Origin: an uncultured Oribacterium sp.
GTDB lineage: Bacteria; Bacillota; Clostridia; Lachnospirales; Lachnospiraceae
Assembly: GCA_900768305.1 (NCBI GenBank)
Contig: CAAGCJ010000035.1
Location: forward strand, 21,357 to 85,356
DNA length: 64,000 bases
Direction of reading: 5' to 3'
Below the pieces are notes generated by a model, which searched no databases, was not told the origin of the DNA, and worked only from the letters and a program-made list of their open reading frames with translations. A program made the position numbers and the translations under genes. Below are positions 29,857 to 30,131 of the stretch, one piece after another; positions within the stretch are counted from its first letter, which is position 1; the number at the start of each line of letters is the position of its first letter.

Positions 29857-30131
29857 AATCGAATAAAACAAACCGATGACAGAGAGAAGTAGTTCATCCT
29901 GAAAGTCAAAGAGAGCCGTCGATGATGAGAATACGGTACAGGATAGATGAGTGAATGGACTCTGGAGGGCGCTCCGAAAGGGATCGAGTAGGAAGCGACG
30001 GGTTCTGCACCGTTATCAGGCAGCACATATGCTGGTATGTGAAAAGTGACCGAAAGGTAAGATGAGTGGTACCACGGATTATAGATTAATTCGCCTCATG
30101 CAGAGAGAAATCTCTGTGTGAGGCTTTTTTG
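29857..30131 (+). promoter_or_regulatory. T-box riboswitch-like leader with an intrinsic terminator
   Basis: Promoter TTGACG-17-TAAAGT at 29822-29850. Stem I base GATGACAGAGAGAAGTAG (GA-motif plus AGAGA). T-box-like AGTGGTACCACGG at 30064-30077, which is AGGGUGGNACCGCG with two mismatches. Terminator cctcatgcagagagaaatctctgtgtgagg plus T6 at 30094-30131. Confidence 0.5.

Follow-up and report, generated by a model that had tools for sequence, protein, structure and literature searches.

The closest described system is the trpXYZ operon of Streptococcus suis. Comparative genomics predicted that trpXYZ is under T-box control, in the work that also named the operon (Panina et al. 2003, as cited in PMC9382623). 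The S. suis leader carries the specifier UGG and the T-box UGGC and is induced at low tryptophan, and mutations in Stem I, the specifier or the T-box abolish its response (PMC9382623). The placement of a T-box ahead of trpXYZ is already known from streptococci, and the regulatory mechanism is textbook knowledge. A literature search combining COG2984 with tryptophan found no paper.

The solved relatives of the binding protein all bind aromatic amino acids: SP1069 (3LFT) binds tryptophan, VC_1101 (3LKV) phenylalanine, and CD0873 (6HNI) tyrosine (PMC6816091). Two residues, here called positions A and B, are named as setting the side-chain preference, and a tyrosine at position B is said to block the larger side chain of tryptophan (PMC6816091). 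Positions A and B are Ala268 and Gln284 in SP1069, Ala246 and Tyr262 in VC_1101, and Glu263 and Tyr279 in CD0873. Gln284 of SP1069 and Gln273 of S. suis TrpX, the latter singled out in PMC9382623, are proposed to admit the indole ring and to hydrogen-bond it.

The window, meaning the whole 64-kb stretch of DNA from a gut Oribacterium that was analysed, contains one T-box leader in an Rfam scan (RF00230). It lies in the intergenic region 29784-30223, which follows a PfkB-family sugar kinase gene (stop at 29783) and precedes the ATG at 30224. Downstream of the leader are genes for a binding protein, a permease and an ATPase (Table 1). The leader is a genuine T-box, and probably a transcription-attenuating one specific for tRNA-Trp, through which tryptophan starvation would induce the operon, most likely a tryptophan ABC importer like the streptococcal TrpXYZ.

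Table 1. Features of the T-box-linked transporter locus and of the paralogous operon, in window coordinates
Feature	Position	Strand	Remarks
Promoter-like site, TTGACG-17 nt-TAAAGT with TG-extended -10	29822-29850	+	9/12 consensus matches
T-box leader, RF00230, full-length	29867-30101	+	model 1-219; 99.2 bits vs gathering score 93
Stem I, with K-turn/GA motif at base, distal loop, specifier loop on 3' side	29873-29968	+	Rfam alignment
AGAGA (AG-bulge) box in Stem I	29910-29914	+	matches model consensus
Specifier loop segment GAA-UGG-A, then closing helix CUCU	29953-29959	+	Rfam alignment
Specifier codon UGG (Trp)	29956-29958	+	conserved purine A29959 next, on 3' side
Stem II	29970-29997	+	Rfam alignment
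Stem IIA hairpin, CGG 29999-30001 with CCG 30010-30012	29999-30012	+	
IIA/B pseudoknot, Stem IIA loop CUGC with GCAG	30005-30008 with 30020-30023	+	Rfam alignment and covariation
Extra 7-bp hairpin CACAUAU-GCUG-GUAUGUG, between pseudoknot and Stem III	30024-30041	+	-9.8 kcal/mol; insertion in Rfam
Stem III, ACC-GAAA-GGU	30049-30058	+	
Antiterminator	30062-30099	+	folds alone at -7.5 kcal/mol
Antiterminator helix A1, AUGAG with CUCAU	30062-30066 with 30095-30099	+	
T-box core AGUGGUACCACGG	30065-30077	+	
Antiterminator 7-nt T-box bulge UGGUACC	30067-30073	+	UGGU 30067-30070 is predicted partner of tRNA 3' end N73-C-C-A
Antiterminator helix A2	30074-30078 with 30090-30094	+	
Intrinsic terminator, 14-bp stem 30093-30124 and U6 at 30125-30130	30093-30130	+	
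Ribosome-binding site GGAGG of binding-protein gene	30211-30215	+	
Substrate-binding lipoprotein, PF04392, trpX-like	30224-31342	+	194.6 bits; lipobox LGAC; position A Ala, position B Tyr
Intercistronic 11-bp hairpin (31417-31444) running into UUUUUCUU	31417-31449	+	-17.1 kcal/mol
Promoter-like site CTGACC-17-(TG)TACAAT, 5' of permease gene	31469-31497	+	consensus match only; -35 is 4/6
Permease, PF02653, trpY-like	31529-32473	+	93.4 bits
ABC ATPase, trpZ-like	32442-33290	+	
Paralogous operon: binding protein, permease, ATPase, without T-box	47982-50811	+	
Paralog binding protein	47982-49028		position A Glu, position B Tyr

The leader match has E = 1.2e-20 for the 64-kb window and exceeds the gathering score by about 6 bits, a narrow margin because of lineage-specific insertions. 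At a permissive Rfam threshold the leader region shows no other credible family besides the T-box. The family assignment draws together this score, the motifs of Stem I, and a 7-nt UGGN bulge in an antiterminator that competes with a terminator. The preliminary description of the window had outlined a 440-bp leader with a promoter, a GA motif and AGAGA box at the base of Stem I, and a T-box sequence. The region is indeed 440 bp long, the promoter-like site and the T-box core are present where Table 1 places them, and the two Stem I motifs both align to the model. The sequence-based checks that it named also came out in its favour: cmsearch scores above the RF00230 threshold, the model alignment gives UGG as the specifier codon, and an alternative antiterminator pairing exclusive with the terminator exists.

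The promoter-like site at 29822-29850 predicts a transcription start near 29857, which is also the first coordinate in the preliminary description. Measured from this start through the U-tract, the element comprises about 275 nt, while the Rfam T-box match itself covers about 235 nt. The terminator folds at -25.0 kcal/mol, with z = -6.7 and none of 200 shuffles as good, and its stem at 30093-30124 is the sole terminator-like site of the 440-bp region; the antiterminator reaches -7.5 kcal/mol. Nucleotides 30093-30099 belong both to the 5' arm of the terminator and to the 3' strand of the antiterminator, so the two folds are mutually exclusive. Judged from its sequence, the architecture is the classical transcription-attenuation T-box design. 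The strong terminator had been placed immediately before the binding-protein gene; its strength is borne out, but it ends 93 nt before the ATG. A translational T-box is ruled out by the canonical terminator and by the ribosome-binding site, which lies about 80 nt further downstream.

In the proposed mechanism, RNA polymerase would start near 29857 and Stem I would offer its UGG to the anticodon of tRNA-Trp. The free 3' end N73-C-C-A of an uncharged tRNA would pair with UGGU in the T-box bulge. This pairing would stabilise the weak antiterminator, and transcription would continue into the binding-protein gene and, by read-through, reach the permease and ATPase genes. With charged tRNA, the far more stable terminator would form and transcription would stop. 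Both tRNA binding and induction are here predicted from the leader's structure.

With the binding protein as query, 80 orthologous loci were fetched from species-representative genomes. They belong to Lachnospiraceae and related Clostridia, with protein identities from 99% down to 55%, and the best match is an uncultured Oribacterium at 99%. The T-box core is present in 73 of the 80 loci, or 73 of the 78 with enough upstream sequence, since 2 of the 80 have too little to judge. The 73 comprise 64 loci found with a codon-agnostic pattern, 7 found by eye, and 2 whose cores are cut by a contig end. Loci L029, L046, L056, L060 and L061 have no T-box anywhere in the fetched locus at an Rfam threshold of E <= 0.001. 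These five share the pocket signature of the T-box clade. Among 13 diverse relatives, 8 pass the RF00230 gathering score, with 94-123 bits. Two short-form Trp T-boxes, L037:997-1177 and L050:4722-4895, score 87 and 72 bits, under the gathering score; in these, Stem I, Stem III and the antiterminator are retained, and Stem II and the IIA/B pseudoknot are missing.

Base pairs were counted in 33 non-redundant leaders, on a structure that combines the Rfam alignment with the pseudoknot and the extra hairpin. In this structure 85.2% of cells are paired, compared with 36.5-42.0% when the partners are slid by 1-3 columns. Changes on both sides occur in 38 of the 54 pairs, and the covariation score is 0.463 against 0.08-0.13 for the slid controls; none of 500 shuffles reaches the observed values. 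The GA/K-turn motif and the AGAGA box of Stem I are invariant in the 33 aligned leaders, and its helices 1-5 are 76-100% paired, with 16 of 21 pairs changed on both sides. Double-sided changes also occur in all pairs of Stem II (7/7; 75% of cells paired), of the IIA/B pseudoknot (4/4; 87%) and of Stem III (3/3; 94%). In the extra hairpin, the four inner pairs are 96% paired and three of them are double-changed, and the three outer pairs are 61% paired. A hairpin followed by a T-run lies downstream of the T-box in 74 of 74 leaders, that of the window included, with a median of -22.4 kcal/mol; its 5' arm starts about 23 nt after UGGN.

The Oribacterium leader resembles that of S. suis trpXYZ in its UGG specifier, Stem II, IIA/B pseudoknot, Stem III and terminator/antiterminator switch. 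The same order of PF04392 binding protein, permease and ATPase follows downstream in both. The gene content behind the Trp T-box, namely PF04392, PF02653 and an ABC ATPase, is of the TrpXYZ type. The link to trpXYZ drawn in the preliminary description is sustained by this shared arrangement, shown in S. suis, and by the UGG specifier (PMC9382623). In contrast, the T-box bulge has UGGU in Oribacterium and UGGC in S. suis, the element is shorter (about 235 nt for the Rfam match, or about 275 nt from start to U-tract, against 461 nt), and the terminator ends in six U rather than four. The Oribacterium binding protein also has Tyr at the position of TrpX Gln273, and its score falls under the cut-off for TrpX equivalogs. 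Its host belongs to the Lachnospiraceae rather than to the streptococci, and the S. suis switch is shown experimentally whereas that of Oribacterium is predicted from sequence.

The order binding protein-permease-ATPase is kept in nearly all orthologous loci. For the ATPase gene the start codon is uncertain, since a 32-nt overlap with the permease gene would result from the listed GTG. Behind the ATPase gene no terminator was detected. Downstream of the transporter lie a cytidylate-kinase-like gene (PF13189) and aroA, encoding EPSP synthase (33436-35402), which have their own promoter-like site (33370-33399); only Oribacterium-like genomes keep this neighbourhood. Just past aroA, at 35724-35980, tRNA-Glu(CUC) occurs as three nearly identical genes in tandem, spaced by about 20 nt, with a promoter-like site ahead of them at 35666-35694. 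The window also contains a bacterial class A RNase P RNA at 25386-25732 (291 bits), which fits a Clostridia rather than a Bacilli host.

The T-box-linked binding protein is about equally distant from the three solved relatives. Its best PDB match is VC_1101 (151.6 bits), followed by SP1069 (145.9 bits) and CD0873 (144.7 bits). SP1069 is of the same fold family and has in common the backbone-binding Thr, Ala, Asp and Asn and the Ala at position A. Its Gln284 gives the indole room and a hydrogen bond, whereas the T-box-linked protein has Tyr at this position and thus lacks the Gln of the tryptophan binders. VC_1101 has the same Ala/Tyr pair; however, the 15 residues between positions A and B are almost wholly different, and VC_1101 has no link to a T-box as far as the sources show. 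CD0873 belongs to the same family and differs at position A, where the T-box-linked protein has Ala instead of Glu. Residues contacting the alpha-amino and carboxylate groups are conserved, with the signature T-A-S-D-N. On the NCBIfam equivalog model for TrpX, NF041285, the protein scores 228.3 bits and misses the cut-off of 390. This score and the absence of the Gln indicate that it is not a TrpX equivalog.

The reading of the specifier depends on the position of the codon in its loop. UGG is the only tryptophan codon. In the codon-agnostic count it is the specifier in 64 of 64 leaders with a T-box core and a specifier loop. Seven further leaders, missed by the pattern, have UGG just 5' of the closing helix when read by eye, so that all 71 readable specifiers are UGG and no other codon is found. 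It is extremely improbable that the codon is misread and that the leader senses tRNA-Gly (GGA, shifted by +1) or tRNA-Met (AUG, shifted by -1). An invariant GAAUGG would conserve AUG too, but in the 33-leader alignment this invariance follows from selection, since those leaders were picked by requiring GAATGG, and the codon-agnostic count is the unbiased one. The base 3' of UGG varies among A, C, G and U, and all four GGN codons specify glycine. However, the codon must adjoin the single unpaired purine 5' of the closing helix, which in the Rfam alignment makes it UGG; a +1 shift would make the third base of the codon abut the helix and leave no purine on its 3' side. The discriminator base of bacterial tRNA-Trp is G73, while bacterial tRNA-Gly has U73 and tRNA-Met has A73. 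UGGN ends in U in 41 leaders and in C in 23, while A and G do not occur at this position. Both U and C can pair with G, which fits pairing with G73 of tRNA-Trp, whereas neither base would pair with U73 of tRNA-Gly and C would not pair with A73 of tRNA-Met. Both shifted frames are rejected on the loop geometry and on this U/C-only acceptor base, and the homologous S. suis system also reads UGG (PMC9382623). A tRNA-Trp gene was looked for in the window and in 160 fetched loci, and none was found. For the tryptophan T-box so defined, the reach along the operon depends on the 186-nt gap that separates the binding-protein gene from the permease gene. Because this gap holds a hairpin, a U-tract and a promoter-like site, T-box control of the whole transporter is put conditionally: T-box-driven transcription would cross the gap and include all three genes. 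It is unlikely that the T-box governs the binding-protein gene alone, with most transcripts stopped at the hairpin and the promoter at 31469-31497 serving the genes for permease and ATPase. Such an arrangement is suggested by the stability of the 11-bp hairpin and its run into the U-tract, by its recurrence in most of the closest relatives (L001-L009), and by the TG-extended -10 of the promoter-like site that comes after it. In contrast, many orthologues, including L010 and L011 at 86-87% identity, have a gap of 16-60 nt without the hairpin, and there the three genes must share the T-box promoter. The promoter-like site is a weak match to the consensus, and hairpins behind binding-protein genes are, as general knowledge has it, common setters of subunit ratio that do not abolish read-through. 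The absence of the hairpin where the gap is short marks it as an optional add-on. Its role may be that of a partial terminator or of an element that stabilises the mRNA, and it probably tunes the ratio of the binding protein to the membrane part rather than ending the operon. A second small hairpin (AUGGGGUCUGACCCCAU) lies between this hairpin with its U-tract and the promoter-like site. In one relative, the corresponding gap contains an orphan Clostridiales-1 RNA (RF01699; L062:5924-6050; 52 bits, gathering score 48), for which the gap in the window gave no match.

Even with tRNA-Trp as the sensed molecule, the main cargo could differ from tryptophan, and be phenylalanine, aromatics generally, or another tryptophan-related alpha-amino acid. 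This is quite improbable, although the pocket points in that direction. In the 73 T-box-linked orthologues, position A is Ala in all and position B is Tyr in 72 and Phe in one, but never Gln. By the published two-residue rule, Tyr at position B bars tryptophan and Ala/Tyr is by default the phenylalanine type, in which the protein of the window would be classed (PMC6816091). The missed TrpX cut-off (228 vs 390 bits) and the similar distance to binders of phenylalanine, tryptophan and tyrosine (about 145-152 bits) are in line with such a cargo. The coupling to tRNA-Trp charging, however, would serve little physiological purpose if the cargo did not provide tryptophan: a UGG that stays invariant in 71 leaders, over protein identities of 55-99%, is difficult to account for with a cargo that does not relieve a tryptophan shortage. 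The rule stands on only three structures, and each of these proteins shares about a third of its residues with the protein of the window. Furthermore, the segment between positions A and B, PHYxGADSFALNGAFxGYGVDY, is clade-specific, and the pocket may be rebuilt. For these reasons tryptophan is favoured as the most likely substrate of the importer. The clade would then bind tryptophan by a non-streptococcal pocket that keeps Tyr; the other option, in which tryptophan controls the import of some different aromatic compound, has a rather low probability.

The binding protein of the paralogous operon is 33% identical to the T-box-linked protein. On NF041285 it scores 328.3 bits, above the T-box-linked protein and likewise under 390. 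Its closest solved relative is CD0873 (244 bits), and both have the Glu/Tyr pocket, which recurs in 76 of 76 scorable relatives of the paralog. The predicted substrate of the paralog is tyrosine. Its -10 box is a perfect TATAAT (47893-47898), with TTGCAT 16 nt upstream when read by eye; this -35 matches in only 3 of 6 positions, for which reason the promoter scan does not report the site. Neither a T-box nor any other known RNA was found in the upstream region in Rfam, even at E <= 10. Among 80 metagenomic relatives of the paralog, 75 of them with at least 400 nt upstream to judge by, no T-box core occurs upstream (0/80). The 5' UTR at 47912-47964 folds into a nested hairpin with two GCTTTAAAG repeats inside (-23.1 kcal/mol; z = -3.6). 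Rfam has no match for this hairpin, which persists in near relatives only, with a weaker outer stem at 88% identity. The paralog had been described as having a plain promoter and no leader, and as differing in substrate or regulation. The second point agrees with the lack of a T-box and with the CD0873-like pocket. As to the first, a T-box is absent, but the 5' UTR is not unstructured.

The mismatch between pocket and T-box is a caution: the rule drawn from three structures is unfit for assigning substrates across the family without testing. The question raised is whether tryptophan is bound by a protein that has kept the Tyr reputed to exclude it, and by what means. In the public record the T-box-linked protein is named only as an "ABC transporter substrate binding protein", and the TrpX model of NCBI would not name it. 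The invariant UGG T-box provides a label for this clade of gut and rumen Lachnospiraceae, which would mark it for uptake induced by tryptophan starvation and separates it from the tyrosine-type paralog in the same genome.
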